Shown one piece after another: positions 8,447 to 64,000 of a stretch of 64,000 nucleotides of DNA; position 1 is the first letter of the stretch, and each line of letters starts with the position of its first letter. Source of the DNA: Betaproteobacteria bacterium (GTDB lineage: Bacteria; Pseudomonadota; Gammaproteobacteria; Burkholderiales; SG8-41); the NCBI GenBank assembly GCA_021730905.1, contig JAKFYK010000036.1, positions 227,734-291,733 of the forward strand, in the 5' to 3' direction. Under the pieces are notes generated by a model. That model did not search any database and was not told where the DNA came from. It saw nothing but the letters and a program-made list of their open reading frames with translations. A program made the position numbers and the translations under genes.

Positions 8447-9430
8447 CTATTTCGCCAAACTCAGTTCGGTCAGCGTCTTGAGCTTATCCACACTTTCCTG
8501 ATCGCAGAATTTCAGCGAGTCGCGGCTGTTGAGATAAACGAATTCCTGCAGGCTGCCTTCAACGTCTTTTTTCCATTCCGGCAGTTGCACCATCTTGCCC
8601 AACACGCCGTCCCAGTACTGCGTTTGCGGTGCAGTCATGCCTTTGGGGCCAACCACCATGCGCCAGTTCGACGACACCGAATCCATGCCCTGCTCTTTCA
8701 GCGTCGGTGCGTTGGCCAGCGCGCCGCGCAAGCGCTGCGGCGACGCGATGCCGAGTATGCGCAACTGCCCCGCTTTAGCTTGCGCTATCACCGACGGCAC
8801 CACCGTTACCGCATAATCAACGTGCCCGCCCATCGCGGCAATCACGGCTTCGGGGCCCGATCTGAAAATGACAAGTTTGATCTTGCGCGGATCCCCGTTC
8901 ATGCTTTTGACAGCCTTGCCCAGGGCCACATGGCCGGTACCGCCGCGCGCGTTGATGCCGCCGGACACCGAATTTGGATCTTTGGCTATTTGCTGAACCA
9001 AGTCGCGCGCAGTTTTGAACGGCGAATCGGGTTTCACCACGATGACCAAATAATCGTGCGCGATCAGCGCGAGCGGCGTGATGTGCGTGTAGGACAGCGG
9101 GCTTACGCCGGTGATGCGGTTGGTCACCAGCGTGGCATTGGCCATGGAAATAAAATGCCCATCACCGACATTCTGGTTCATGTAGACCATGCCGACGGTG
9201 CCGTTGGCACCCGGCTTGTTGACCACATGGCTCGACACGTCCAGCAGTTTTTTCTCCTGGAACAAGCGCTGAATGGTGCGCGCGGGCCGGTCGGCCCCGC
9301 CACCCGCACCCGACCAGACGATGATCTCGACATTTTTGTCCGGTTTCCATTGCTGCGCATGCGCGGTAGCCGCGCACCATATGATGGCGAACAGCGCTGC
9401 CAGGTGATTCATTCCGATGCACCGTTTCAT
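8447..9430 (-). CDS. TctC-type (Salmonella TctC-like subtype) substrate-binding protein
   Basis: ORF 8447..9526 trimmed to ATG 9430 (AAGGAG RBS). Signal ...ATAHAQQ, then WKPDKNVEIIVWSGAGGGADR. The C-terminal ...LSLAK resembles the TctC ending. Confidence 0.85.
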   Translation of the reverse strand: MKRCIGMNHLAALFAIIWCAATAHAQQWKPDKNVEIIVWSGAGGGADRPARTIQRLFQEKKLLDVSSHVVNKPGANGTVGMVYMNQNVGDGHFISMANATLVTNRITGVSPLSYTHITPLALIAHDYLVIVVKPDSPFKTARDLVQQIAKDPNSVSGGINARGGTGHVALGKAVKSMNGDPRKIKLVIFRSGPEAVIAAMGGHVDYAVTVVPSVIAQAKAGQLRILGIASPQRLRGALANAPTLKEQGMDSVSSNWRMVVGPKGMTAPQTQYWDGVLGKMVQLPEWKKDVEGSLQEFVYLNSRDSLKFCDQESVDKLKTLTELSLAK

Positions 9431-9458
9431 GCTGGTCACTCCTTTTTGCCCGTCCTTG

Positions 9459-10592
9459 CTACTTAAGCAATAAATTGACCAGAATCTGCCGGTAAATTTT
9501 TTGCAGCGGCTCAATCTCATCCACACCCACGCATTCGTTCAGCTTGTGGATGGTGGCGTTGGTAGGGCCAAACTCCACCACTTGCGGACAGATATCCGCG
9601 ATGAAACGGCCATCCGAAGTGCCGCCGGTGGTTGAAAGTTCGGTGTCGACGCCGGTGACGGATTTGATTGCGCGCGCCACCGCATCTACCAGATCGCCGC
9701 GCTGGGTGAGAAACGGCCGGCCGTCGACGCGCCAGTCCAGGTCGTAGGTCACACCATGCCGGTCCAGAATATTCACCACGCGTGTTTGCAGTGATTCCGT
9801 GGTGCTTGCGGTCGAATGCCGGAAATTGAAGCGAACGTGCGCAGCACCGGGAATCACATTGTTGGCGCCGGTGCCCGAATTGAAATTGGAAATCTGCCAG
9901 GTGGTCGGCGGAAAGTATTCGTTGCCGTTGTCCCATTTGGTTTGCGCCAGTTCGGCGATGGCGGAGGCGATTTCGTGTATCGGGTTGCGCGCCATATCGG
10001 GATAGGCGACGTGGCCCTGCACGCCATTCACGGTGAGGATGCCGGTGAGCGAGCCGCGGCGGCCGTTCTTGATCATGTCGCCTAGTTTTTTCACCGACGT
10101 CGGTTCGCCGACGATGCAGTAATCGAGCTTTTCGCCGCGCGCCGCCAGTGCTTCCACCACGCGCACGGTGCCATCGATGGCCGGGCCTTCTTCGTCCGAG
10201 GTGAACATCACCGCCAGCGAACCCAGGTGATCGGGATGTTCGTTGACGAAATCACGCAGCGCCAGCACGAACGCGGCAAGCGAGGTCTTCATGTCGGATG
10301 CGCCACGCCCATACAGCCAGCCGTCGCGTATCGTCGGCGTGAACGGATCGCTCTTCCATTGATCAAGCGGGCCGGTCGGCACCACGTCGGTGTGTCCAGC
10401 AAAGCAGATGAGCGGTTTTGCCGTGCCGCGCCGCGCCCACAGATTGTCCACGCCGCCCATGGAGATTTTTTCGCACTTGAAGCCCAGTGGCTCCAGAATG
10501 TCGATCAGGATGTCGAGGCAGCCCGCGTCTTCGGGTGATACCGAGTTGCGCGCGATGAGCTGTTTGGCCAGTTCCAGCGTATTGATTTCCAC
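9459..10592 (-). CDS. dapE: Succinyl-diaminopimelate desuccinylase (M20 family)
   Basis: ORF 9459..10949 trimmed to GTG 10592 (AAGGAG upstream), giving 377 aa. Motifs [33 protein letters not shown]. Confidence 0.85.
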
Positions 10593-19932: not shown

Positions 19933-20928
19933 CTACATCTTGGGAATATTCGCGTCCTTGATCACCTGCGCCCAGCGGTCGATTTCCGCGCGCATGAATT
20001 TGTCGAACTCATCGCGGCTGGTCGGCGCGGGCGGCATCCCCAGCCCGGTCAGGCGCTTCTCGACTTCGGGGATGCGCATTACCGCGTGCAGATCGGCATT
20101 CAGCTTGTCGAGCACGGCCGTGGGTGTAGCGGCCGGCGCACACACGCCGTACCAGGAATTGACCTCGAAGTCAGGCACGCCCGATTCCGCCATCGTCGGC
20201 ACGTTCGGCAGCAGCTCCTGACGCTTTGCACTCGCGACCGCGAGCGCGCGCAAGCGTCCGTCCTGAATCGGCGCTATTACGAGCGGCGTGTTGGTCACAT
20301 TGATCGGGATTTGGCCGGCCATGACATCGCTCGTCCCCTGCCCCGCGTTTTTATAGGGAATGTTGACGATGTCGAACTTCATCCGCAACTTGAGCCACTC
20401 CATGGTCAGCTGCGGCGAGGTGCCGGGCGTCCCCGAAGCATAACTCAGCTTGCCCGGGTTCGCCTTTGCATAAGCCAGGAGCTGCTTGATCGATCGGAAC
20501 GGCGTCGACGGGTGCACGACAATAACGTTGGGCGGCATGCCGATGCGCGTGACCGGCGCGAAATCTTTATGCGCGTAGGGCAGGTCCGCGATCATCGACA
20601 GCGAAATTGCATTCGGGGCAATATTGCAATGGAGCAGCGTGTAGCCGTCGGCTGGCGACCTCGCAACAAATGCCGCGCCTATCGAGCCGGAGGCGCCCCC
20701 CCGGTTGTCAACAATGACCTGCTGGCCCCACAAGCGCGTCAGCGGATCGGAGATGATACGAGCGACAATGTCGTTTCCGGTACCCGCAGCAAACGGCACG
20801 AGGTAGCGGACAGGTTTCACTGGAAAAGTTTGTGCCGACAAAACGGCCGGGTATATCCAGACCGCAACCGCAATAGTGTAGACAAAGGCGTAAATCGACC
20901 CACGATTAGCTCTGATCGCACTGCGCAT
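19933..20928 (-). CDS. Bug/TctC-family substrate-binding protein
   Basis: ORF 19933..21012 trimmed to ATG 20928. ...PAVLSAQ, then TFPVKPVRYLVPFAAGTGND. Confidence 0.9.
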   Translation of the reverse strand: MRSAIRANRGSIYAFVYTIAVAVWIYPAVLSAQTFPVKPVRYLVPFAAGTGNDIVARIISDPLTRLWGQQVIVDNRGGASGSIGAAFVARSPADGYTLLHCNIAPNAISLSMIADLPYAHKDFAPVTRIGMPPNVIVVHPSTPFRSIKQLLAYAKANPGKLSYASGTPGTSPQLTMEWLKLRMKFDIVNIPYKNAGQGTSDVMAGQIPINVTNTPLVIAPIQDGRLRALAVASAKRQELLPNVPTMAESGVPDFEVNSWYGVCAPAATPTAVLDKLNADLHAVMRIPEVEKRLTGLGMPPAPTSRDEFDKFMRAEIDRWAQVIKDANIPKM

Positions 20929-21141
20929 CACGCACCTCCATGAAAAAGGTACCGCAAAGATGTACAGCCTGCTGGTCAACGCTCTGCCGAACTTGCGCGG
21001 CAACCCAAGCAACGCCGAGCGTCCACAAGATGATTATGGCACTCGAACGGTGCCGGGTCCACAAAATGGCGTTATTTCGCGCCGCCTTCCCCACCCGGCA
21101 GAACCGCGACAGGTTAGGGGCTGTTAGTTCCTGGTTGGTAG

Positions 21142-33425: not shown

Positions 33426-35132
33426 TCACCCGCCCGCCAAATCCCTCCCCGCTTCCTCGATCAACGCATCAAATGTTTCCGGCACGCGCACCATGCGGCC
33501 GACGACGGCGGGGCTGTTGCCCTGCAGCCAGAACGAATGCGTCGGATGCCCGCCGCCGGCGACGACGAGTATCAGATTCTCCGGCCTGGAGGTAATCGGC
33601 CACATCTCCCTGTCGATACTGTCGCGCGCGGATTGATCGTGCGCAATTTCAATCCACGCGCGACCACCGGTGCGTTTGATCTGTTCCTGCGGGATGCGCG
33701 AGTGGTTGACGAGAAATTCGCGGATTTTCGGCTTGGTCCAACCCAGGTCCGCGAGCGCCCCGGCGACCACTCGCGTGAGCAGCATGGCGCCCGGGGTGCC
33801 TTCTTCGTAGCCGTGCAGGTAGTGATAGCTGGGCACAGCAAGAAAGCCTGCCATACGATGCAAACCCTGTTCGGCATCTTCCTGCTTGGTTTCCTTTTGC
33901 GCACCGCGCCGCACGATGTTGGTCGCGCCCGTGGAAAAAAACAGCGATACCGAATTGCTGCCCTGGGTAAAACCGTGGCGCTCCTGCGCGTGTGTCGGCC
34001 AGCCTTCGGGCAATCCCGCTTCGTCTTCGGCAAACACAATATTGTTGTAACGGTTGTTGCCCCACGGCGCCATGGTGCCGGTGCCGGGCAGCGCGCCGCC
34101 AAGATTCTGTTGCATCTGGCGCAGCGCGCGGCCTATGCTCGCACCCGCCGGGAATTGCGGATCGGGGCCGAGGCAACCGAAACCGGAATTGAGCTTGATC
34201 TGCCTGGCGATTGGCCCGTTGACCACTACCACCGGAAACGGCGCGCCCGAGGTCGCCTGCGCGAGCTCGCTGCGCAGCGATGGATCGAGAAACGCATCTG
34301 TGGCTGCGATCAGGATCGGCAGATATTCGGGCCGTCCGCCTGCCATCGCCAGCGCGATGGCGCATGCCTCGACCGTGACAATGCCGCCGCGCGGCGGGAA
34401 TTTGCCCAGTACGTGCGTGCGTGGCAGCGGCGTGCCCCGCAGCATCCAGTCCACGCGCTCGCGCGTCGCCGGCCACAGCGGCATGCCGTCGCCCCACAAC
34501 TTTGCGATGAACAGATTGTTGGCCTTGGCCAGCGCGTCCTCGTAGGTCGCCCCTTCGACGCTCAGCATGGCGCTGCCGCCCACTTTGATGGACTTGGCTT
34601 CCGCACGCGTGAGGCCGTCATATAACTCCTGCCTGCGCGCCTTGAGCGGCGCCAGGTCCGCGTCGGGTAAGAATGTCTCGATCGGGAACGTCACCATCGG
34701 TACATTGGGATCAACGTTGAGCCCTGACACCGCGTTTTTCACCACGCCAACAAAATCCTTGCGCGTGATGGTGACAGTGGGTATGCCTTCTGCTTCGATT
34801 CTGGCGGCTGCACGGCCGCACGCTGTGGAGCACGCCCCTCAGGCCGCGTTGCCGATGATCACGGCATCGACGTCGCTCTCCTTGACGAGCTTGGCAACTT
34901 CAGCGTTGCCGATCAGCGTGTTGCCCTGCGGGAAACGGTCGATGGGCAGCACTTCAACGCCGGGATAATCTTCTTCGAGCATGCTCTTGACCAGCGGCAG
35001 CATGCGGTACGCCTGCCATTGCTCGTTGGACACGAAGCCAATGCGCTTGCCGGCAAGCGACGCGAGTCGCGGCGCATGCGGTTTGGCGGTTTCGAGCGCG
35101 CCGGAGGGATCGAAAAATTCGAGTTTGACCAT
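33426..35132 (-). CDS. Candidate selenoprotein: UGSC-type module (Sec at codon 98, TGA 34841-34839) fused to a ~440-aa uncharacterised domain
   Basis: Track ORFs 34839..35132 and 33426..34745 share one frame, with a single TGA and no other stop between them. Reads ...VDAVIIGNAA-U-GACSTACGRAAARIEAEGIPTVTITRKDFVGVVKNAVSG.... AGGAGA RBS before ATG 35132. Confidence 0.65.
34804..34819 (-). other. Weak SECIS-like hairpin downstream of the UGA
   Basis: GCGGC-CGUGCA-GCCGC lies 20-35 nt after the UGA, with GU in the loop. Only 5 bp, so marginal. Confidence 0.3.
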
Positions 35133-35634: not shown

Positions 35635-36135
35635 ATGCGCAAATGGAAAGAAATCGCATCGGGTTTGTTCTGGATTGCTGTGGGATCGGGAATCCTGTGG
35701 GCTACGTGGAGCGGTTGGCAGGATTTTGCGCAACTTGAATCCGGCGAGCTCAAATCGATGAAAATCTGGGCGCCGCTGGCATGGATATACAACCTCGGCG
35801 GCACCTGGGCATTCATCGCCAAATGGGCCTTTCTTGCGATGGTGGGGCTCACCGGATTGGCATTGACGCTTGCGGGTGTCATGTCATTTTTCCCTGCCAA
35901 GGAACACGAATCCCCGGATCAGCAGGCCGTTTCGCAAAACGACGCGAGATACGATCTTGAAGTAACAGCAGCGCAGATCGCCAATGAGGACGAGATCGTC
36001 ATTCGCGGACCCAATGGCACCCTCGCTATAAAACTGCAAAAAACAATGCTCGAAGATCATTACTTGCGGTATCCGGGCGAAGGTTTCGAGGGCAAAGGCG
36101 ATCTTTACGTATTGATCAAGGTTCACAATGCCTGA
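35635..36135 (+). CDS. Membrane protein with a DnaJ C-terminal-domain-like tail (no J domain)
   Basis: Two to three N-terminal hydrophobic segments. The tail YDLEVTAAQIANEDEIVIRGPNGTLAIKLQKTMLEDHYLRYPGEGFEGKGDLYVLIKV resembles a DnaJ CTD repeat. Confidence 0.6.
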   Translation: MRKWKEIASGLFWIAVGSGILWATWSGWQDFAQLESGELKSMKIWAPLAWIYNLGGTWAFIAKWAFLAMVGLTGLALTLAGVMSFFPAKEHESPDQQAVSQNDARYDLEVTAAQIANEDEIVIRGPNGTLAIKLQKTMLEDHYLRYPGEGFEGKGDLYVLIKVHNA

Positions 36136-36160: not shown

Positions 36161-37144
36161 TTAATCAACGCCGATTTTCCCTGCCTTGATCACCTTCGCA
36201 TAACGCGCGATTTCGCTGGCGAGATGATTGCCGAGCTCTTCGGGCGTGCTGCCGACCGGCTCGCCGCCTTCGCGCGCGATAAAGTCGCGGATGTCGGGCG
36301 ATTTGAGTGCATCGACGGTGACGCCGTTCAGCCGGGTGACGATATCGCGCGGCGTTTTCGCAGGGAGAAACAGACCGAACCAGTTATCCGATTCGAAATC
36401 CGCATACATCGACAGCATGGTCGGCAGCTGCGGATACACGCTTGACGGATTGCGCGTGGTGACTGCAAGCCCGCGCAACTTGCCATTGTCGAGATGCTGC
36501 TTGATAGTGGTGAGCGTGGAAAAAGTGAAATCGACTTCGCCGCCAAGTATCGCCGTGGTGCCGTGCCCGCCGCCCTTGTAGGCAATGGCCACCACGTTGA
36601 TTCCGGTCATTTGTTTGAGCATTTCGAGCGCGATGTGGCTGGTGGTGCCGGCGCCGTTATGCCCGCCGTTCAGTCCGGTCTTGCTGCGCTTGGCAAGTGC
36701 CACCAGTTCACGCACCGATCGCGCAGGCACGCTCGGATGCACTGTCACCACCAGCGGCGATGACGAGAGCCATGTGACCGGCACCAGATCGCGCAGCGGA
36801 TCGAACTTGGTGCGCGCGGCAAACAACGTGGCGTTCACCGACAGCGACGCCGACGTGAGCAACACGGTGTAGCCGTCGGCGGGCGCGCGCGCGACAAGTT
36901 CGGCGCCGATCATGCCGCTGGCGCCGACCCGGTTGTCCACCACGAACGGCTGGCCCAGCGTTTCGTGAAACTTTTTCGACAGCAGCCGCCCCTGGATATC
37001 GCTGCTGCCGCCGGGCGTAAACGGTACGACGATGCGCACGGTTTTCGCGGGCCAGTTTTGCGCGGCTGCAGGTACTGCGATGGCTGCCGTAACCATCGCG
37101 ACGGCTGCCACGCGCAGCAGGGCTAACTTCAGATCATTTTGCAA
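36161..37144 (-). CDS. Bug/TctC-family substrate-binding protein
   Basis: Signal ...VPAAAQ, then NWPAKTVRIVVPFTPGGSSD. Confidence 0.9.
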   Translation of the reverse strand: MQNDLKLALLRVAAVAMVTAAIAVPAAAQNWPAKTVRIVVPFTPGGSSDIQGRLLSKKFHETLGQPFVVDNRVGASGMIGAELVARAPADGYTVLLTSASLSVNATLFAARTKFDPLRDLVPVTWLSSSPLVVTVHPSVPARSVRELVALAKRSKTGLNGGHNGAGTTSHIALEMLKQMTGINVVAIAYKGGGHGTTAILGGEVDFTFSTLTTIKQHLDNGKLRGLAVTTRNPSSVYPQLPTMLSMYADFESDNWFGLFLPAKTPRDIVTRLNGVTVDALKSPDIRDFIAREGGEPVGSTPEELGNHLASEIARYAKVIKAGKIGVD

Positions 37145-53037: not shown

Positions 53038-54180
53038 ATGAAAAAATTGATTTGCGCCGCCACGCTGGCGGCAATTATTGGCGCGGCCACTACGGCACAT
53101 GCCGAAACCGGCAGCGCCGCACCCACGCAGGAATCGGCCACTTTAACGTGGAACAAAATCGCGCTGGAGTCTATCGAGCGCGCCAAGCCCACGCAGCATC
53201 AGGCGATACGGCTACTCACGCATGTGTCGCTGGCGCAGTACGCGGCACTCGCCGCGGCAAACGAGGCAGCGGCGCGCGATGCCGTGGCCGCGGCATCGGC
53301 GCGTGTCATCGCCGAACTGATGCCCACGCAGGCATCATTTGCACAGGAACGTTATCGTCAGTCGCAAGCCGGTACAATCGATGCCGGGGTGCGCGCCGCG
53401 CAACGCGTGCTCGATGAGGCGCGCAGTGATGGCTTTGGCACGGCCTGGAACGGCCAGGCGCCGCAAGCGGCTTGGGCATGGCGCAGCCTGGCGAATCCGC
53501 CAGCGCCGGCAGCGTATCCAGCGATCGGCGGCATGCGCACCTTCTTCGCCGAGTCCGGCAATAGCTTTCGGCCCGTAACCGCTCCCGCGCCCGGCACTAC
53601 ACGCTTTACCACCGATATCACGGAAGTGCGTTCCTATACCGACGCGCCGACGGCGGAAACCACGCGCATTGCAAAGTTCTACGACATGACCACCGGCACG
53701 CTGGCAGGCGGCTTCTGGAACGAACGCGTAGCGGAACTGATACGCAGGCACGCAACCGGTGAGCGGCAAACGGCAACCGTTCTGGTCACACTCAACGCCG
53801 CGATGATGGATGCGCTTGTCGCGTGCCACGACGCAAAGTACGTCTACTGGGTACCACGCCCGTCGCAGGCAGACCCGTCGATCAAGCCGCTGATCGATGT
53901 GCCCAATCATCCGTCGTATCCGAGCAACCATTCATGTCTTTCCACCGCGGCCGCGTTGGTACTCGCGCACTTCTTTCCACAGGAACGTCCGCGTATGGAA
54001 AGCATTGCAACGGAAGCGGGCGTCTCCAGAATCTACGCCGGCCTGCACTACCGTTTCGACGTGGAGGCAGGTGAAGACATCGGCCGCAAAGTGGCGAACG
54101 TGGCGATTGCGCGCCATGCGCAAATGCTGGCGAAGTGGGCACAACCCGAAGCCGTCGCAAGGCAGGCAGCGCGGGAGTAA
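53038..54180 (+). CDS. Secreted PAP2-superfamily protein (vanadium-haloperoxidase / acid-phosphatase-like)
   Basis: Signal ...TTAHAE. The full PAP2 signature is present: KYVYWVPRP (Kx6RP), PSNH (PSGH-like), SRIYAGLHYRFD (SRx5Hx3D). Confidence 0.8.
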   Translation: MKKLICAATLAAIIGAATTAHAETGSAAPTQESATLTWNKIALESIERAKPTQHQAIRLLTHVSLAQYAALAAANEAAARDAVAAASARVIAELMPTQASFAQERYRQSQAGTIDAGVRAAQRVLDEARSDGFGTAWNGQAPQAAWAWRSLANPPAPAAYPAIGGMRTFFAESGNSFRPVTAPAPGTTRFTTDITEVRSYTDAPTAETTRIAKFYDMTTGTLAGGFWNERVAELIRRHATGERQTATVLVTLNAAMMDALVACHDAKYVYWVPRPSQADPSIKPLIDVPNHPSYPSNHSCLSTAAALVLAHFFPQERPRMESIATEAGVSRIYAGLHYRFDVEAGEDIGRKVANVAIARHAQMLAKWAQPEAVARQAARE

Positions 54181-55719: not shown

Positions 55720-55935
55720 ATGAAAAACCTCACCTACGAAATCTATCTCGCCCACCCGGAGATCCGGGACCAGATCGAACGGGAGGTGCGCCGCGCGCGC
55801 GCCGAAGCATTCGACCAGTACGTCATAGCACCGCTGATAAATGCATTCCGCAAGTTGTTCAGGTGCGCCGCGCTTCCATTCGCCGGGCCGGATGTCCGGA
55901 ACGGCATTCACTTCAACCCCCAATCAAGGAGTTAA
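55720..55935 (+). CDS. Small hypothetical protein (71 aa)
   Basis: ORF track. AAGGGA RBS. The stop lies 2 nt before the next start. No family recognised. Confidence 0.45.
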   Translation: MKNLTYEIYLAHPEIRDQIEREVRRARAEAFDQYVIAPLINAFRKLFRCAALPFAGPDVRNGIHFNPQSRS

Positions 55936-55937
55936 TC

Positions 55938-56873
55938 ATGCAAACCATGCAACACAATGAAGCACACGATCGGTATGCCAAGTGCATCGAAGTCTCCAAG
56001 CGCATCCGCTGGGAGATCGACCGCGACGTGATCCGCGGGCGCAGCTTCGACGTATCGAAGAAATTCCTGCCTGACGGCCTGTGCAGGATCGGCAAACTAG
56101 ATTTTCTCGGCGCCGCAGAGAAGCGCCTGGTGAGCCAGATACAGGGCCGCACCTACGCCAACATGTTCGGCCTGGTAGAACGTTTCATCGGTGCCAAGAT
56201 GCTCGAGATCAGCCGCGAACACTGGCTCGGCGACCAAACCGCGCTCGAGGCGCTGGTGCGTTTTACCGACGAGGAACTCAAGCACCAGGAGCTGTTCCGC
56301 CGCATCGAGCAAATGGTTGCTCCAGACATGCCCGCAGGCTACAGTTTTATGCCGCAGCCCAACGACGTTGCAACGGCGGTGCTGGGAAAATGCACTTGGG
56401 CTGTCCTCGCGCTGACCTGCCACATCGAACTTTTCACGCAGGCGCATTACCGGCAGAGCATCGAGCCTGACTCCGATCTTTCCGATCTGTGGAAGGATGT
56501 GTTCCTGTTCCACTGGAAGGAGGAGTCGCAGCATGCGATCCTCGACGAGCTGGAATGGAAGCGCGAGGATGCAAAGCTGACACCGCAGCAACGCGACCAG
56601 GCTGTTTCCGACCTCATTGATCTCGTCGCCGCCGTGGACGGCATCCTGCAATTGCAGGCCGCCGCTGACACAGACTATTTCCTGCGCATATGCGGCAGAA
56701 TTTTCCAGAAAGCACAGGTAACCGCGATAGGCGACGCAATGCTCGCTGCGTACCGCTGGCAGTACATCACCTCGGGCGTACAGGACGAGCGCTTCGGCAA
56801 GATCCTGAGCGGCATGATCACTGGCGCGCAGATGGAGCGTATCGGTGCCGCACTTGCGCCTATCGTCAACTGA
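55938..56873 (+). CDS. Ferritin-like di-iron oxygenase (AurF-like)
   Basis: ORF 55863..56873 trimmed to ATG 55938 (AAGGAG RBS). Two ExxH motifs (TDEELKHQE, WKEESQHAILDE) plus upstream Glu residues (LVERF, HIELF). Confidence 0.7.
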   Translation: MQTMQHNEAHDRYAKCIEVSKRIRWEIDRDVIRGRSFDVSKKFLPDGLCRIGKLDFLGAAEKRLVSQIQGRTYANMFGLVERFIGAKMLEISREHWLGDQTALEALVRFTDEELKHQELFRRIEQMVAPDMPAGYSFMPQPNDVATAVLGKCTWAVLALTCHIELFTQAHYRQSIEPDSDLSDLWKDVFLFHWKEESQHAILDELEWKREDAKLTPQQRDQAVSDLIDLVAAVDGILQLQAAADTDYFLRICGRIFQKAQVTAIGDAMLAAYRWQYITSGVQDERFGKILSGMITGAQMERIGAALAPIVN

Positions 56874-57050: not shown

Positions 57051-58025
57051 TCAATGCATATTCGGCTTTTTGAGAAAGTCATCGCGGTCGGCCGACTTGA
57101 CTGTGACACTAAACACCTCGCCCGCGCGTGCGAGGGTGAGCGGCACCTCAACGCCAGCCGGGCCGAGGTGCCGCACGACCCGGAACAATTCCGCCAGCCC
57201 ATGCACACGCCGGGTGCCAACAGCCATTACCATGTCGCCCGCCTGAATACCGGCGCGCTCGGCCGGGCCGCCAGCGGCGGCTCTTCCCACGACCAGATTG
57301 CCTTCCGCTTCCAGTGTGCGCATACCCAGCCATGGACTCGGCGGATGCGGACTACGGCCGGTTTGTAACATCCCGTCGAGGATGGGACTGAGCAGGTCGA
57401 TCGGCACGAACATGTTGACGTGGACGGATTTGCCGTTTACCTCTTGCTCCACCAACAGCGAACCGATGCCGACGAGTTCACCTCCCGCATCGAGCAGCGC
57501 GGCGCCGCCCCATTGTGGATGCGCCGGCACGGTGAAAAGCGCTTCTTCGAGCAGGTATTCCCAGGGGCCGGCAAACTCGCTTTTCGCGACGACTTGCGTC
57601 TTGAGCGCATGCGCGCGGCCGCCGTGGCCGATCACAAATGAGGAATCACCGACGTTCACATCCGATGCGAGACCGCGCCGCAGAGAGGGCGCATCCAGTT
57701 TTCCGAGCGGCTGGATCAGGGCAAAGCCGGTGGTTCGGTCATAGGCAAGCGGATAGCCGCCCACCACGGCTCCGCGATTGGTAGTAAGCCAGATTTGCGT
57801 CGCTTCGGTAATCAAATAGCCGATGGTGAGCACGAGGCCGTCCTCGCGGATCACCGCACCGTAGCCCCCGCGCTCGGTGCCGAGGTTGGATGCGGTGTAT
57901 CCATCCTCCGGCACTTCCGCACGGATCAATACCATCGCGTCGAGCGCGCGCTCGAGGTCAAACTGGGTTTCACCGGCCTTCGGTTGCAGCGACTCCCGGA
58001 AGGCCCATTGTTGGGGTTCGGACAT
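57051..58025 (-). CDS. HtrA/S1C-like trypsin-fold + PDZ protein lacking recognisable catalytic His/Asp/Ser
   Basis: ORF 57051..58496 trimmed to ATG 58025; the longer version overlaps the selW-like gene antisense. The expected TNxHV, DxAxL and GNSGG regions read TIGYLI, TGFALI and QWGGAA. PDZ-like tail ...PAERAGIQAGDMVMAVG.... Confidence 0.7.
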   Translation of the reverse strand: MSEPQQWAFRESLQPKAGETQFDLERALDAMVLIRAEVPEDGYTASNLGTERGGYGAVIREDGLVLTIGYLITEATQIWLTTNRGAVVGGYPLAYDRTTGFALIQPLGKLDAPSLRRGLASDVNVGDSSFVIGHGGRAHALKTQVVAKSEFAGPWEYLLEEALFTVPAHPQWGGAALLDAGGELVGIGSLLVEQEVNGKSVHVNMFVPIDLLSPILDGMLQTGRSPHPPSPWLGMRTLEAEGNLVVGRAAAGGPAERAGIQAGDMVMAVGTRRVHGLAELFRVVRHLGPAGVEVPLTLARAGEVFSVTVKSADRDDFLKKPNMH

Positions 58026-58115
58026 GCGGCAATTCTGACACGATACCCAGCCGGCAAGGAAATCCGGGGTTGTCGAGGTATCCGCTATCATTGTGATTCT
58101 TATAGGAGCCTTGCC

Positions 58116-58346
58116 ATGCGCATCTCCATCAAGTACTGCGTGAGCTGAAATTACCTGCCCCGGGCCGCCAGTCTGGCGGCCGAGATCTCCGCGCAGTTCA
58201 GCGTACAGGCCGAACTCATCAAGGGTAGCGGCGGTGTGTTCGACGTCACCGCGGACAGCGCATTGATCTACTCCAAGCACCACACAGGGCGCTTTCCGGA
58301 CAACGCCGAGGTGCTGCAGACCTTGCGCAGTCTGCCGAAGCGTTGA
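58116..58346 (+). CDS. SelW/Rdx-family selenoprotein (CxxU; Sec at codon 11, TGA 58146-58148)
   Basis: TAGGAG RBS. Reads MRISIKYCVS-U-NYLPRAASLAAEISAQFSVQAELIKGSGGVFDVTADSALIYSKHHTGRFPDNAEVLQTLRSLPKR*. The frame stays open 65 codons past the TGA. The YCxxU...GGxFxV...GRFP pattern is typical of bacterial SelW-like proteins. Confidence 0.75.
58163..58181 (+). other. SECIS-like hairpin
   Basis: GGCCGCCA-GUC-UGGCGGCC is a perfect 8-bp stem starting 15 nt after the UGA. The GU in the apical loop is about 23-24 nt downstream. Confidence 0.55.
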
Positions 58347-58586
58347 ATCGGTCGGCTGGGGTTTGATGAGCGCTATCCAGGCAGTGGAGCCGCAGACCAG
58401 ACTGTAGACGCGCAGCGCTATCCTTGCGCCAGGGTTCGCGTGATCGCCGTGATTGGCTTCGCGTTTTTCCATGCTGCCACGGACACCTGTCGGCAACGAG
58501 CAGGATGCCGAGTCCGGGTTTGTAGATTAATATCTGTGGTTCCCGACCTTAGTCCACCTAGAAGACTCGCCACTGGAGGAAACCTG

Positions 58587-59825
58587 ATGAATGCTCAATC
58601 CGTGCCTGCGCCCGCGGGTAAACCTGCGCTCGCCGGCATCCGTGTTGTCGATCTCACCCAATTCGAAGCCGGCACCTCGATTACGGAGACGCTGGCCTGG
58701 CTCGGCGCCGATGTGATCAAGGTCGAGAACCCTGTCGGCGGCGAGCAAGGCCGCAACGCGTCCTCGGATCGCAAGGACGCCGACAGCTACTACTTCATGC
58801 TGCTGAACGCCAACAAGCGCTCGGTGACGCTCAACCTCAAGGACGAGCGCGGCAAGAAGATGCTGCGCGACATGATCGCCAAGGCCGACATCTTCGCGGA
58901 GAACTTCGCGCCGGGCGTTATCGAGAAGCTCGGCTTCTCCTACGAGGAGGTGGCGAAGATCAACCCGCGCATCATTTATGCGACAGTAAAAGGGTTTGGC
59001 AAGGGCGGCCCCTTCGAATCGAATCTCGCCTTCGACATGATCGCCCAGGCGGCCGGCGGTGTGATGAGCATCACCGGCGAACCCAACGGACCGCCGATCA
59101 AGCCCGGCGTCACCCTCGGCGACACCGGCACCGGCCTGCACGCCTGCATCGGTGTGCTTGCCGCGCTGTTCCAGCGCACCATCACCGGTCGCGGCCAGAA
59201 AGTGGAGGTCGCCATGCAGGACGCGATGGTGAACTACTGCCGCATCGCCTATTCACACCAACTCGCCACCAACAAGGCCTGCGAACGCAAGGGCAACCGC
59301 GTGGTGCTTGGCAACGCGCCGTGCGACGTTTTCAAATGTAAGCCGGGCGGCCACAACGACTATGTCTACATTTACACCAGCCGCGCTACCAATTCGCACT
59401 GGGAGCGGCTGTGCGAAGTGATTGGACGTGAGGACCTCAAGGCCGACAAACGCCTCGCGACGCCGCCGATGAGGGCGAACCACGTCGACGAGATCAACGG
59501 CTGCATCGAGGCCTGGACCCAGCAGTTCACCAAGCACGAGGCGATGGAAAAGCTCGGCAAGGCCGGTGTGCCGTGCGGGGCCGTGCTCGATACGATGGAG
59601 CTATCCGAGGATCCGTCGATGCGCAAACGCGAGATATTCGCTGAGATCGACCATCCCGTCCGCGGCAAGGTTGTCATCCCCGGCTGGCCGGTGAAGATGT
59701 CGGACAGCTACGTCAAGGTGACGTCGTCGCCCATCCTTGGCGCGGACAACGCAGATGTCTACCGCGACATGCTCGGACTCTCTGAGGCCGACATCGCGGC
59801 CTTGAAAGCAGACAGAGTAGTCTAG
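58587..59825 (+). CDS. Class III (CaiB/BaiF) CoA-transferase, formyl-CoA transferase-like
   Basis: ORF 58440..59825 trimmed to ATG 58587 (TGGAGGA RBS). GIRVVDLTQFEAGTS...GADVIKVE...ENFAPG...GDTGTGLH. Confidence 0.85.
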   Translation: MNAQSVPAPAGKPALAGIRVVDLTQFEAGTSITETLAWLGADVIKVENPVGGEQGRNASSDRKDADSYYFMLLNANKRSVTLNLKDERGKKMLRDMIAKADIFAENFAPGVIEKLGFSYEEVAKINPRIIYATVKGFGKGGPFESNLAFDMIAQAAGGVMSITGEPNGPPIKPGVTLGDTGTGLHACIGVLAALFQRTITGRGQKVEVAMQDAMVNYCRIAYSHQLATNKACERKGNRVVLGNAPCDVFKCKPGGHNDYVYIYTSRATNSHWERLCEVIGREDLKADKRLATPPMRANHVDEINGCIEAWTQQFTKHEAMEKLGKAGVPCGAVLDTMELSEDPSMRKREIFAEIDHPVRGKVVIPGWPVKMSDSYVKVTSSPILGADNADVYRDMLGLSEADIAALKADRVV

Positions 59826-61040: not shown

Positions 61041-62027
61041 TCAGTCGAGAGCACCGGACTCGCGCAACTGGGAAATGATCTTCCGCCACTTTGTGGCCTC
61101 CGTCCGCTGAAACTCGGCGAGCGCCTTCGGTCCGTCGACCGCGAGCAACTGGCCTTCCTGGTCAAGAATCGCCGTCGTGCCCGGCTTATTCACCGCCACG
61201 CGTACTTCCTTGTAGAACTTTTCCCTGACGGCTCCCGGCGTGTTCCTGGGCGTGAAGATTCCGAACCACTGATGAGACTCGAATCCCTGCACGCCCGACT
61301 CCGCGACAGTCGGAACGTCGGGATACACGCTCGTGCGCTTTGCGCTGGTGACGGCTATCGCCCGCAGGCGCGCGGCCTTGATGTGAGGCGCAACCGGGAT
61401 AACGGTGGTAATGACGAGCTGCACGCGGCCGGCTATCGTGTCTATCACCGCCGGCGGCCCCCCTTTGTAGGGAACGTGCATCAGGCTGATGCCGGCGGCG
61501 CGGTTCAGCATCTCGATCGTGAGATGGTGGATTCCACCGGCGCCGGGAGTGCCATAGAGCAGGTCTTTGGGCTTTGCCTTGGAGAGGCTGATCAGCTCCT
61601 GCACCGTTTTGACGGGCAGCGAAGGATTGCTCGCCAGCACGAGCGGCGCGAGCGAGACGAGCGTCACGGGCGTAAAATCCGCGACCGGGTCGTAGGGAGG
61701 CGTTTTCGTGAGGAATGGAACGATCACGAGGCTGCCGCCACCGACGATGAGCACGGTGTAGCCGTCGGCAGCAGCGGCGGCGGTGATCTGCGCCCCCAGC
61801 AGTCCGGCCCCGCCGCCGCGATTGTCGAGGATGAGGGACTGCCCCATAGACTCTGACATGCCTGGGCCAATGAGGCGCGCTATGATGTCGGGCGCCGTGC
61901 CCGGCAACCCCCCGATAATGAGCCTGACCGGCTTGGTAGGATAAGCCTGACCCCACGCAGAGCCGCCCGCAACAAGCACGATCGATACGATGAAAAGTAC
62001 AGCCACTTGAGACAATTTCGTTTTCAT
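61041..62027 (-). CDS. Bug/TctC-family substrate-binding protein
   Basis: ORF 61041..62072 trimmed to ATG 62027 (GGGAGGAG RBS). ...GSAWGQ, then AYPTKPVRLIIGGLPGTAPD. Confidence 0.9.
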   Translation of the reverse strand: MKTKLSQVAVLFIVSIVLVAGGSAWGQAYPTKPVRLIIGGLPGTAPDIIARLIGPGMSESMGQSLILDNRGGGAGLLGAQITAAAAADGYTVLIVGGGSLVIVPFLTKTPPYDPVADFTPVTLVSLAPLVLASNPSLPVKTVQELISLSKAKPKDLLYGTPGAGGIHHLTIEMLNRAAGISLMHVPYKGGPPAVIDTIAGRVQLVITTVIPVAPHIKAARLRAIAVTSAKRTSVYPDVPTVAESGVQGFESHQWFGIFTPRNTPGAVREKFYKEVRVAVNKPGTTAILDQEGQLLAVDGPKALAEFQRTEATKWRKIISQLRESGALD

Positions 62028-62154
62028 ACGCAGCTCCTCCCTGTGATTCATCCTGCGTTCAACAATCCGCATCCTTCACTGAAAGCACTCACTGTCGTTC
62101 GAACACATTGATCGCCCACCCCCGGTGTGGCGGTAATCTTCACCAGAACGGCCG

Positions 62155-63135
62155 TCACTGCGGTTTGATGCCGGCGTCCTTTACCACCTTGGCATACTTG
62201 TCCCGCTCAGCGCGGATGAACACAGCGAACTTCTCGGCCGTCAGTTCGTTGGGCTGCATACCCTGAACCGCCAGTTGCTTTTTCATCTCCGGCAAAGCGA
62301 GCACCTTGCCAAGTGCGCCGCGAATGCGCTCAAGCTCCGCTTGCGGCACGCCCGCTGGCGTGCACAAGCCCTGCCACGAAACGACCTCGAAGCCCGGCAT
62401 GCCGGACTCGGCAAAGGTCGGTACGTCGGGCAGATCGGGGTGGCGCGTCGTCGACGTCACAGCGAGCATGTGTATCTTGCCGGCGCGAGCCGCCCCGAGG
62501 AACGACGGCACGGTGGAAGCCATCGCCTCAACGTGGCCTCCCATCAGCTCCACCAGTGCCGGCCCGGCGCCCTTGTACGGTACGTGGATGAGTCGGATGC
62601 CGGTGGCTGTCCTGAGCATCTCCATCGAGAGTTGCGGCGAAGTTCCCACACCGGGCGATGCGTAGTTGATCTTGCCCGGGCTCGCTTTCGCCAGAGCAAT
62701 GAATTGTGCGATCGTCTTCGCCGGCACCGCGGGGTTGACGACGAGGGCGTTGGCCGTGCTGCCAATCAGGCCGATCGGCGCAAAACCGGCCACAGGATCG
62801 TAGCCGAGCTTCTTGTAGAGCGCCGGGCTTACCGCAAGCGATCCGATATTGCAGGCGAAGAGGGTGTAGCCGTCCGGTGTCGTGTGGGCCGCGATCTCGG
62901 CGCCGAGGGTTCCGCCCGCCCCTCCGCGATTGTCGATGACGACCTGCTGGCCGAACAATTCGGCCAGCCCGGCGGCCACGATGCGCGCGACGATGTCGGT
63001 CGAGCCGCCCGGCGGGAAGGGCACGATGTAGCGCAGCGGCCGGTCCGGAAACCCCTGTCCCGTACGCTGCGCCAGCGCGGCGCACGGGATAACCAGCAAT
63101 AGGACAGCGACGAAAACACGAGTGCTGCGGTTCAT
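62155..63135 (-). CDS. Bug/TctC-family substrate-binding protein
   Basis: AAGGAGGAG RBS. ...CAALAQ, then ...FPDRPLRYIVPFPPGGSTD. Confidence 0.9.
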   Translation of the reverse strand: MNRSTRVFVAVLLLVIPCAALAQRTGQGFPDRPLRYIVPFPPGGSTDIVARIVAAGLAELFGQQVVIDNRGGAGGTLGAEIAAHTTPDGYTLFACNIGSLAVSPALYKKLGYDPVAGFAPIGLIGSTANALVVNPAVPAKTIAQFIALAKASPGKINYASPGVGTSPQLSMEMLRTATGIRLIHVPYKGAGPALVELMGGHVEAMASTVPSFLGAARAGKIHMLAVTSTTRHPDLPDVPTFAESGMPGFEVVSWQGLCTPAGVPQAELERIRGALGKVLALPEMKKQLAVQGMQPNELTAEKFAVFIRAERDKYAKVVKDAGIKPQ

Positions 63136-63169: not shown

Positions 63170-64000
63170 TCACTGCGCCTGCGCGCCGGTTGAACGGATG
63201 AGTTTTTCGTATTTGCCGTAGTCCGATTTCAGGCGTGCGGCGAACTCATCCGCTGTCATGTGCATCGGGTCAAGCGCCTGCACGCCGAGGATTTTTGTCG
63301 ACTCGGGATGATCCAGCGCCTTCCTGAACTCGGTGTTGAGGCGCTCCACGATCGCACGCGGTGTCGCCGATGGCACGAAAGAACCGATCCACGCGGTGAG
63401 CTCGTACCCGGGCACCGTTTCCGCGATCGTCGGAATATCGGGGAACTGCTTCAGCCGCTTGTCGGACGCGACACCCAGCGGGCGCACGCGCTTCGCCGGG
63501 AGGGCTGAGGTCAGTGAACCGATGCCCACGAAAAACACCTGTGTTTCTCCGGCCATGAGCGCAATCACAGCGGGGCCACCACCCTTGTAAGGGATCTCCA
63601 GCATCTTCGTCCCGGTCATCTGGAGTAGCTGCGCCATGGTGAGCCAGGTGTAGCTGCCGGTGCCGGTGGAAGCCCAGGCGATCTGGTCCGGTTTCGATTT
63701 TGCGAGCGCTATCAGTTCCTTCACCGAATTCGCTGGCAGTGCCGGATGCACGACGAGCATGCCGACCTGCACCGCGAGCGGCATGACTCCGGTCAGGTCC
63801 CTCATCGTGTCATACGGCAGATTCTTGTAGGTATGCGCGTTCGCGACGTGGGTAGCGGAGGTGACCAGGATGGTGTAGCCGTCAGGCGGGCTCTTCGCAA
63901 CGATGTCGGTTCCGATGACGCCTGTCGCACCGCCCCGGTTGTCAATCACGAAGGCCTGCCCCAGCGCTTCCGTAAGCTGCTGGGCCATCACGCGCGCAAC
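63170..64000 (-). CDS. Bug/TctC-family substrate-binding protein (partial, N-terminus beyond window end)
   Basis: ORF 63170..63991. The frame stays open to the window edge. ...FVIDNRGGATGVIGTD...PPDGYT...IPYKGGGPA. Confidence 0.85.
   Translation of the reverse strand, partial: VARVMAQQLTEALGQAFVIDNRGGATGVIGTDIVAKSPPDGYTILVTSATHVANAHTYKNLPYDTMRDLTGVMPLAVQVGMLVVHPALPANSVKELIALAKSKPDQIAWASTGTGSYTWLTMAQLLQMTGTKMLEIPYKGGGPAVIALMAGETQVFFVGIGSLTSALPAKRVRPLGVASDKRLKQFPDIPTIAETVPGYELTAWIGSFVPSATPRAIVERLNTEFRKALDHPESTKILGVQALDPMHMTADEFAARLKSDYGKYEKLIRSTGAQAQ

Follow-up and report, generated by a model that had tools for sequence, protein, structure and literature searches.

The paradigm of the bacterial SECIS is found in Escherichia coli fdhF and fdnG, where an in-frame hairpin lies directly 3' of the UGA and carries GU in its apical loop at a defined distance, and the eukaryotic SECIS is a kink-turn element located in the 3' UTR and read by SBP2 and eEFSec. 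SelW-like selenoproteins of bacteria, with a CxxU motif and a bacterial SECIS placed in the coding region, were described in 2005 (PMC1088965; also PMC2398784). In the Sargasso Sea and GOS data, they outnumber every other prokaryotic selenoprotein family (PMC1088965, PMC2398784), with 48 SelW-like genes in the former (PMC1088965) and 427 Sec forms versus 56 Cys forms in the latter (PMC2398784). Their role is given in the literature as 'candidate redox', an assignment that rests on the CxxU motif and on glutathione binding by SelW (PMC1088965).

The locus studied here lies in a window of 64 kb, which is the whole stretch of DNA that was analysed and has a GC content of 60%. Positions 58116-58346 of its forward strand can be assigned with high confidence to a functional, stand-alone gene coding for a 76-residue SelW-like selenoprotein (Rdx/SelT-SelW-SelH family), with Sec predicted at an in-frame UGA. 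A Shine-Dalgarno sequence AGGAG (58104-58108, +) is separated by a 7-nt spacer from the start codon ATG (58116-58118, +), which opens a frame encoding the N-terminus MRISIKYCVS, followed by an in-frame TGA as codon 11 (58146-58148) and by 65 further open codons; an earlier sequence-only reading of this DNA had proposed each of these elements, and direct reading and translation confirmed them all. The frame is closed by a terminal TGA (58344-58346). The CxxU redox motif (58137-58148, +) consists of Cys8 (TGC, 58137-58139), Val, Ser and the predicted Sec11. GC content at the three codon positions of this plus frame is 0.55/0.47/0.83, which is normal for coding DNA. The coding sequence is thus documented by its translation, by family HMMs, by codon-position GC and by 80 orthologous loci, and, judged from these sequence data, it is a genuine, ordinary small bacterial gene whose product is a candidate for a redox-protein role.

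Only two ORFs are recorded at the locus in the mechanical ORF list, namely a 117-aa ORF on the plus strand (57795-58148) and a 481-aa ORF on the minus strand (57051-58496), in agreement with the picture drawn earlier of a plus ORF stopping at the TGA and a minus ORF running across the locus. The 117-aa ORF is in the same frame as the SelW-like gene and ends at the in-frame TGA; it extends the true N-terminus of 10 codons in the upstream direction.

For profile searches, U was written as C in the protein of the window. Under this convention, the protein matched Pfam Rdx PF10262 over residues 2-71 with 77.1 bits (cut-off 22.6; E=1.2e-21), NCBIfam TIGR02174 'SelT/SelW/SelH family protein' with 58.6 bits (cut-off 34.2) and NCBIfam NF041051 'SelT/SelW/SelH family (seleno)protein' with 92.1 bits (cut-off 88). 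The SelW/SelT/SelH (Rdx) identity suspected from the letters alone is thereby borne out by scores above the cut-offs of all three models. Furthermore, the 65 residues located after the UGA are significant on their own against Pfam Rdx (E=3.3e-14), and a chance open frame is therefore ruled out. Among proteins of known structure, the best sequence matches are Cys-form, SelW-related bacterial proteins, namely PDB entries 2FA8 (E=1e-11, residues 2-73), 3DEX, 2OJL, 2OKA, 2OBK and 2P0G, and the CxxC of the solved 2FA8 and 3DEX aligns residue for residue with C8-x-x-U11.

The fold was judged on the AlphaFold model (pLDDT 91) of a full-length homolog, P0001, which is 83% identical to the protein of the window. 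This model is composed of beta1 (3-8), a motif loop, alpha1 (14-28), beta2-beta4 and alpha2, and the motif equivalent to CxxU lies between strand E3-8 and helix H14-28. It superposes on 2FA8 with a TM score of 0.90 at 1.1 A; its top matches among SelW-related PDB entries range from TM 0.83 to 0.90, mouse SelW reaches TM 0.70, and thioredoxins are weaker matches. According to this homolog model, the protein of the window is predicted to adopt the thioredoxin-like beta-alpha-beta-beta-beta-alpha fold.

A scan of species-representative genomes yielded 80 orthologous loci, which span at least six phyla (Burkholderiales, Planctomycetota, Acidobacteriota, Myxococcota, Desulfobacterota and others) and include beta-proteobacterial MAGs, Phycisphaerae, Thermoanaerobaculia and Electrothrix (Desulfobacterota). 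The five closest loci come from Burkholderiales/beta-proteobacterial MAGs and share 73-80% protein identity with the window. The codon aligned to codon 11 is TGA in 78/80 loci, in which the flanking frame is conserved on both sides of the TGA and a start codon is found about 10 codons upstream. In the remaining two loci (L079 and L080, Planctomycetaceae), which are nearly identical to each other, this codon is TGC and encodes Cys. The comparison that the sequence-only reading had called for thus came out in its favour, the Cys orthologs (2/80) aligning at codon 11 and the frame after the TGA being conserved in 78/80 loci. As read from this alignment, codon 11 displays the Sec/Cys homology by which selenoprotein genes are defined.

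A search of protein databases retrieved 72 homologs (P0001-P0072), the closest of which are 79-85% identical to the protein of the window. Most of these records span just 42-63 aa, as gene calling had placed their start at an internal codon past the UGA; some of these fragments, from Burkholderiales MAGs, are named 'Rdx family protein' or 'SelT/SelW/SelH family protein' by NCBI. The sole two full-length calls (P0001 and P0064) have W at the position of the UGA. These records represent a systematic mis-annotation, and the W at the Sec position is spurious. A reading of TGA as Trp (genetic code 4), raised by the W of these two entries, was considered and rejected, because TGA appears to serve as a stop in this 60% GC window and in its Burkholderiales-like relatives, including at the end of this very gene. 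Separately, one of the orthologous loci (L001, CAZQJF010000276.1) is labelled 'uncultured Streptomycetaceae bacterium', while its SelW-like gene is 79% identical to that of the window and groups with the Burkholderiales loci; this 5-kb contig is probably mis-binned.

The 481-aa minus ORF is the longest ORF over the locus, and its translation does match related loci in tblastn, as would be expected if it were the real gene (57051-58496) and the plus frame its shadow. Several observations make this reading vanishingly improbable. The tblastn matches of the minus extension are confined to residues 51-137, the exact mirror of the SelW-like gene, and a protease core adjoining the SelW-like gene was not found by tblastn in any relative; the 481-aa antisense ORF is therefore a shadow ORF as far as its extension is concerned. 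The strongest protease/PDZ matches of this ORF begin at residue 181-212, and no family match covers its residues 1-180 in Pfam and NCBIfam profile searches, an ATG being available at 58025. In addition, codon-position GC of the minus extension (58496-58026) is 0.69/0.52/0.59, which is not coding-like, whereas that of the plus frame is, and variation among orthologs follows the codon periodicity of the plus frame. On the grounds of codon-position GC and of the missing domain match, positions 58026-58496 of the minus strand are thus taken as a non-coding 'shadow' extension. The trypsin-like/PDZ serine protease gene itself probably starts at 58025, its most likely extent being 57051-58025 (-); the resulting protein of 324 aa begins with MSEPQQW and its gene is clear of the SelW locus.

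The SelW-like gene on the plus strand stands alone, with the divergent protease gene upstream and an intergenic region of 90 nt, in which no sigma-70-like promoter was detected. Its downstream neighbour is a family III CoA-transferase, nominally a GTG-started ORF of 461 aa, whose real start is probably an ATG near 58587. A weak terminator-like site (58448-58463, +), made of a 5-bp stem followed by TTTTT, occurs about 100 nt past the stop codon of the SelW-like gene and inside the nominal 461-aa CoA-transferase ORF. No conserved neighbourhood was found across the loci compared, the largest neighbour cluster being present in only 10/81 of them, and there is therefore no operon-based clue to the function of the SelW-like protein. 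As for the wider surroundings, genes for TctC ('Bug') family periplasmic receptors occur at 36161-37144 (-), 62155-63135 (-) and 63170-63991 (-), and homologs of the ORF at 61041-62072 (-) are found near the SelW-like gene in Burkholderiales relatives (L001-L005 and L008). The TctC/Bug genes fit the known Bug expansion in Burkholderiales, and a Burkholderiales origin, and they probably do not indicate a functional link. Some sizeable ORFs of the window had no Pfam match (55863-56873, +; 35635-36135, +) or no NCBIfam match (8447-9526, -; 19933-21012, -; 61041-62072, -).

A predicted bacterial SECIS hairpin is located at 58163-58181 (+), that is, wholly within the coding sequence, in the stretch that encodes R-A-A-S-L-A-A-E. 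Its sequence, GGCCGCCA-GUC-UGGCGGCC, starts with the 15th nt past the UGA and forms an 8-bp stem (58163-58170/58174-58181) in which 8/8 pairs are perfect, closed by the apical loop GUC (58171-58173); folded alone, it has a free energy of -15.3 kcal/mol. The published bSECIS model (PMC13188914, Fig. 2) describes (i) an upper stem of 4-16 bp capped by an apical loop of 3-9 nt, (ii) a G at loop position 1 or 2, usually followed by G or U, (iii) an apical loop separated from the UGA by 16-37 nt, and (iv) a minimum free energy of at most -7.5 kcal/mol. The hairpin of the window agrees with this model on 4/4 counts, with a 3-nt loop and an 8-bp stem, the loop sequence GUC, a distance of 22 nt and -15.3 kcal/mol, so that the 8-bp hairpin with GU in its loop and a SECIS geometry, as first proposed, can be both read in the sequence and matched to the model. 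In the ungapped alignment, the distance from UGA to loop is 22 nt in all 78 Sec-form loci, and the energy threshold of -7.5 kcal/mol is passed by 76/78 Sec-form orthologs.

A 61-nt single-sequence fold gave z=-1.5, which is not unusual for GC-rich DNA; since single-sequence fold statistics are uninformative in such DNA, significance was taken from comparative data. No Rfam match was obtained for the whole window at the gathering threshold, and an E-value scan of the locus returned a single chance-level match (E=1.8); this silence means that nothing in the Rfam library reached threshold, and it does not count against the SECIS. The exact 17-nt hairpin core is unique to this site within the window, and with up to two mismatches 4 matches were found (two palindromic sites, each on both strands), where chance would give 0.08. 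The palindrome GCCGCCACGCTGGCGGC at 53056-53072 differs from the core by two mismatches and is located 18 nt inside the ORF 53038-54180, a frame that weakly matches the models of the acid phosphatase PhoC and of the undecaprenyl-diphosphatase SepP. No in-frame TGA precedes this palindrome, and it is probably coincidental.

As the hairpin is entirely contained in coding sequence, it could in principle be a mere by-product of encoding the helix peptide P-R-A-A-S-L-A-A, with no function at the RNA level. The peptide RAASLA does occur in both Cys-form loci too, and the GC-rich Ala codons that make up the stem are common in a 60% GC genome. This explanation is nonetheless given very little weight, as the constraint acts on synonymous sites. 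Indeed, these sites are fixed in a complementary pattern: the Ala codon of the 5' arm is GCC in 123/130 cases (116/295 elsewhere in the same genes) and that of the 3' arm is GCG in 71/74 cases (125/295 elsewhere in the same genes). In the loop, Ser is encoded by AGU in 50/50 cases, as compared with 14/254 elsewhere in the same genes, and where Gly replaces Ser its codon is GGU in 26/26 cases, as compared with 79/537 elsewhere in the same genes; these rare codons, used in 76/76 cases against the GC bias, yield the GU of the loop. The apical loop is GUY in 75/78 sequences and GGU in the other 3/78. Third codon positions within the hairpin carry 1.66-1.83 bits, versus 0.1-0.5 bits at most third positions outside it. 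The Cys forms, by contrast, have the Ser codon AGC, giving a loop GCC, together with a stem mismatch, the contrast between Sec and Cys forms being drawn from two nearly identical loci.

Covariation, examined in 79 Sec-form sequences aligned without gaps, also speaks against a coding by-product and for a functional RNA hairpin. The hairpin is found at the same offset in every Sec-form sequence aligned, and 88% of the pair cells form standard pairs, versus 20-53% in controls with the 3' partners shifted by 1-3 columns. Compensatory, double-sided changes occur at four pairs (e.g. GC to UA, CG to GC and CG to UA). Three of the 8 pairs join a third codon position to another third codon position, and both of those located in the conserved core pair in every sequence (100%), with switches from GC to UA or GU and from CG to GC. 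The observed covariation score was reached by 0/500 shuffles, although the shuffle and Fisher statistics overstate significance, as the 78 sequences are phylogenetically related; despite this kinship, the direction and size of the constraint on the hairpin read as unambiguous in the alignment. According to the ortholog alignment, the universally conserved part of the hairpin is its inner 6 bp (58165-58170 paired with 58174-58179, +), the two outer stem pairs being held in 60-68% of sequences.

Within the core, alignment columns 22/32 (window positions 58167/58177) show an A-C or U-C mismatch in 21/78 distinct ortholog SECIS sequences, which arises from Thr ACC or Ser UCC replacing Ala GCC, and where the 3' partner at 58177 is changed to A, the 5' base at 58167 is U in 4/4 cases. 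This appears, from the sequences compared, to be an internal mismatch that is tolerated at a fixed position. The 17-nt SECIS core is near-identical across at least six phyla. One may speculate that helix 1 (P-x-A-[A/S/T]-[S/G]-L-A) is dictated mainly by the SECIS RNA and that the shared core reflects a repeated horizontal spread of the gene-plus-SECIS cassette, but we consider this rather doubtful.

No tRNA gene, and hence no tRNA-Sec, was predicted by ARAGORN in the 64-kb window, and none of the 20 window ORFs scanned, which include LeuC, an NtrC-type regulator, a histidine kinase, an amidohydrolase, a PrpB-like lyase, a CoA-transferase, a cupin, TctC receptors and an FMN dehydrogenase, is SelA, SelB or SelD. 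Likewise, no tRNA-Sec occurs within 6 kb of the SelW-like gene in 60 loci (L001-L060), where only tRNA-Lys and tRNA-Cys were detected, in two loci. That Sec machinery genes and tRNA-Sec are not seen in the window would fit a decaying pseudogene or relic in a genome no longer able to decode Sec, the UGA at 58146 then being an ordinary stop and the product a 10-aa peptide or nothing. Such a relic is very unlikely. The frame after the UGA is intact, with a family HMM match at E=3e-14 and a GC3 of 0.83, the SECIS hairpin is perfect at 8/8 pairs, and a second, unrelated gene of the window keeps an in-frame TGA where its homologs have Cys, followed by an intact frame of 439 aa; two intact relics would be improbable.

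This second predicted Sec gene (33426-35132, -) encodes a UGSC-family fusion of 568 aa, in which an in-frame TGA (34839-34841) sits in the context IIGNAA-U-GACSTAC. Against NCBIfam 'UGSC family (seleno)protein', its N-terminal domain gives E=5e-14, below the whole-protein cut-off, as expected because the protein is a fusion, and its large C-terminal domain had no match in the Pfam library copy scanned. A UGSC-containing protein fused to a conserved domain of unknown function, 'Unknown_1', has been described (PMC2398784). The closest homologs of the fusion (82-95% identical) are about 439 aa long and start after the TGA, and in every one of the more distant homologs of full length (about 575 aa, PF24696) that column is occupied by Cys, in the motif IGNAACGxCSTA; one of the latter, from Variovorax, is named 'UGSC family (seleno)protein'. 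A stem-loop with the apical loop GUGCG is found 17 nt after the TGA. The earlier suggestion that this gene, too, decodes Sec is supported by the presence of TGA where full-length homologs have Cys. It is very likely that the source genome decodes Sec, since two independent, intact genes carry a TGA at redox positions where homologs have Cys. As two predicted selenoprotein genes lie less than 25 kb apart, this soil Burkholderiales lineage may have an unusually rich selenoproteome.

With a functional selenoprotein gene as the preferred reading of 58116-58346, its expression can be outlined by analogy with the established bacterial pathway. Translation would begin at the ATG at 58116, and the SECIS hairpin at 58163-58181 would present its GU-containing apical loop 22 nt past the UGA held in the ribosomal A site. 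The loop could then recruit SelB-GTP-Sec-tRNA(Sec), so that Sec would be inserted instead of termination taking place, and translation would run on to the TGA at 58344. The product is predicted to fold as a small thioredoxin-like protein with beta1, the CxxU loop, alpha1, beta2-beta4 and alpha2. Cys8 and Sec11, lying between beta1 and alpha1, would most likely cycle between the selenolate/thiol and selenenylsulfide (Cys8-S-Se-Sec11) states, and the protein could thereby act as a thiol-dependent oxidoreductase.

The SelW-like gene belongs to an already known and very common family, and its recognition is an annotation fix and no discovery; nothing new is added on selenoprotein biology. Its value lies mainly in annotation, since standard gene callers would miss or shorten the gene, and the 481-aa shadow ORF on the opposite strand can be called in its place. 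Together with the UGSC gene at 33426-35132, it identifies the source organism as one that uses selenocysteine. Furthermore, the alignment of 78 loci provides a clean example of dual-coding constraint, in which an RNA structure is imposed on synonymous sites.

In comparison with known systems, the protein of the window resembles the SelW-like proteins of the metagenomes in its length (about 75 aa), in the CxxU placed directly after the first beta-strand, in the GG-x-F-x-V and G-R-F-P motifs, in a SECIS that directly follows the UGA and has G in its apical loop, and in the excess of Sec over Cys forms (427 to 56 in GOS, 78 to 2 here). Nothing substantial separates them, except that the copy of the window comes from a 60% GC, Burkholderiales-like genome and not from a marine one. 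The solved Cys-form proteins of Agrobacterium (Atu0228, 2FA8), Streptomyces (SAV_2001, 3DEX), Bordetella (2OJL), Pseudomonas (2OBK/2OKA) and Vibrio (2P0G) share the same fold, but have Cys in place of Sec and are about 25-30 residues longer; their helix 1 reads RAGWMAQE or RAAWLAQE, whereas that of the window protein reads RAASLAAE, the stretch that encodes the SECIS. Mouse SelW (2NPB) and MIEN1 (2LJK) have the same Rdx fold and the same CxxU/CxxC position (TM 0.70 and 0.79, respectively, with the P0001 model) at about 23-25% sequence identity. Unlike the mammalian element, the SECIS of the window is a simple hairpin within the coding sequence, which, by analogy, would be read by SelB. Compared with the hairpins of E. 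coli fdhF and fdnG, it is shorter, with a 3-nt loop and no bulged U, and about a quarter of the orthologs of the window gene have the fixed-position internal mismatch instead of the bulged U.
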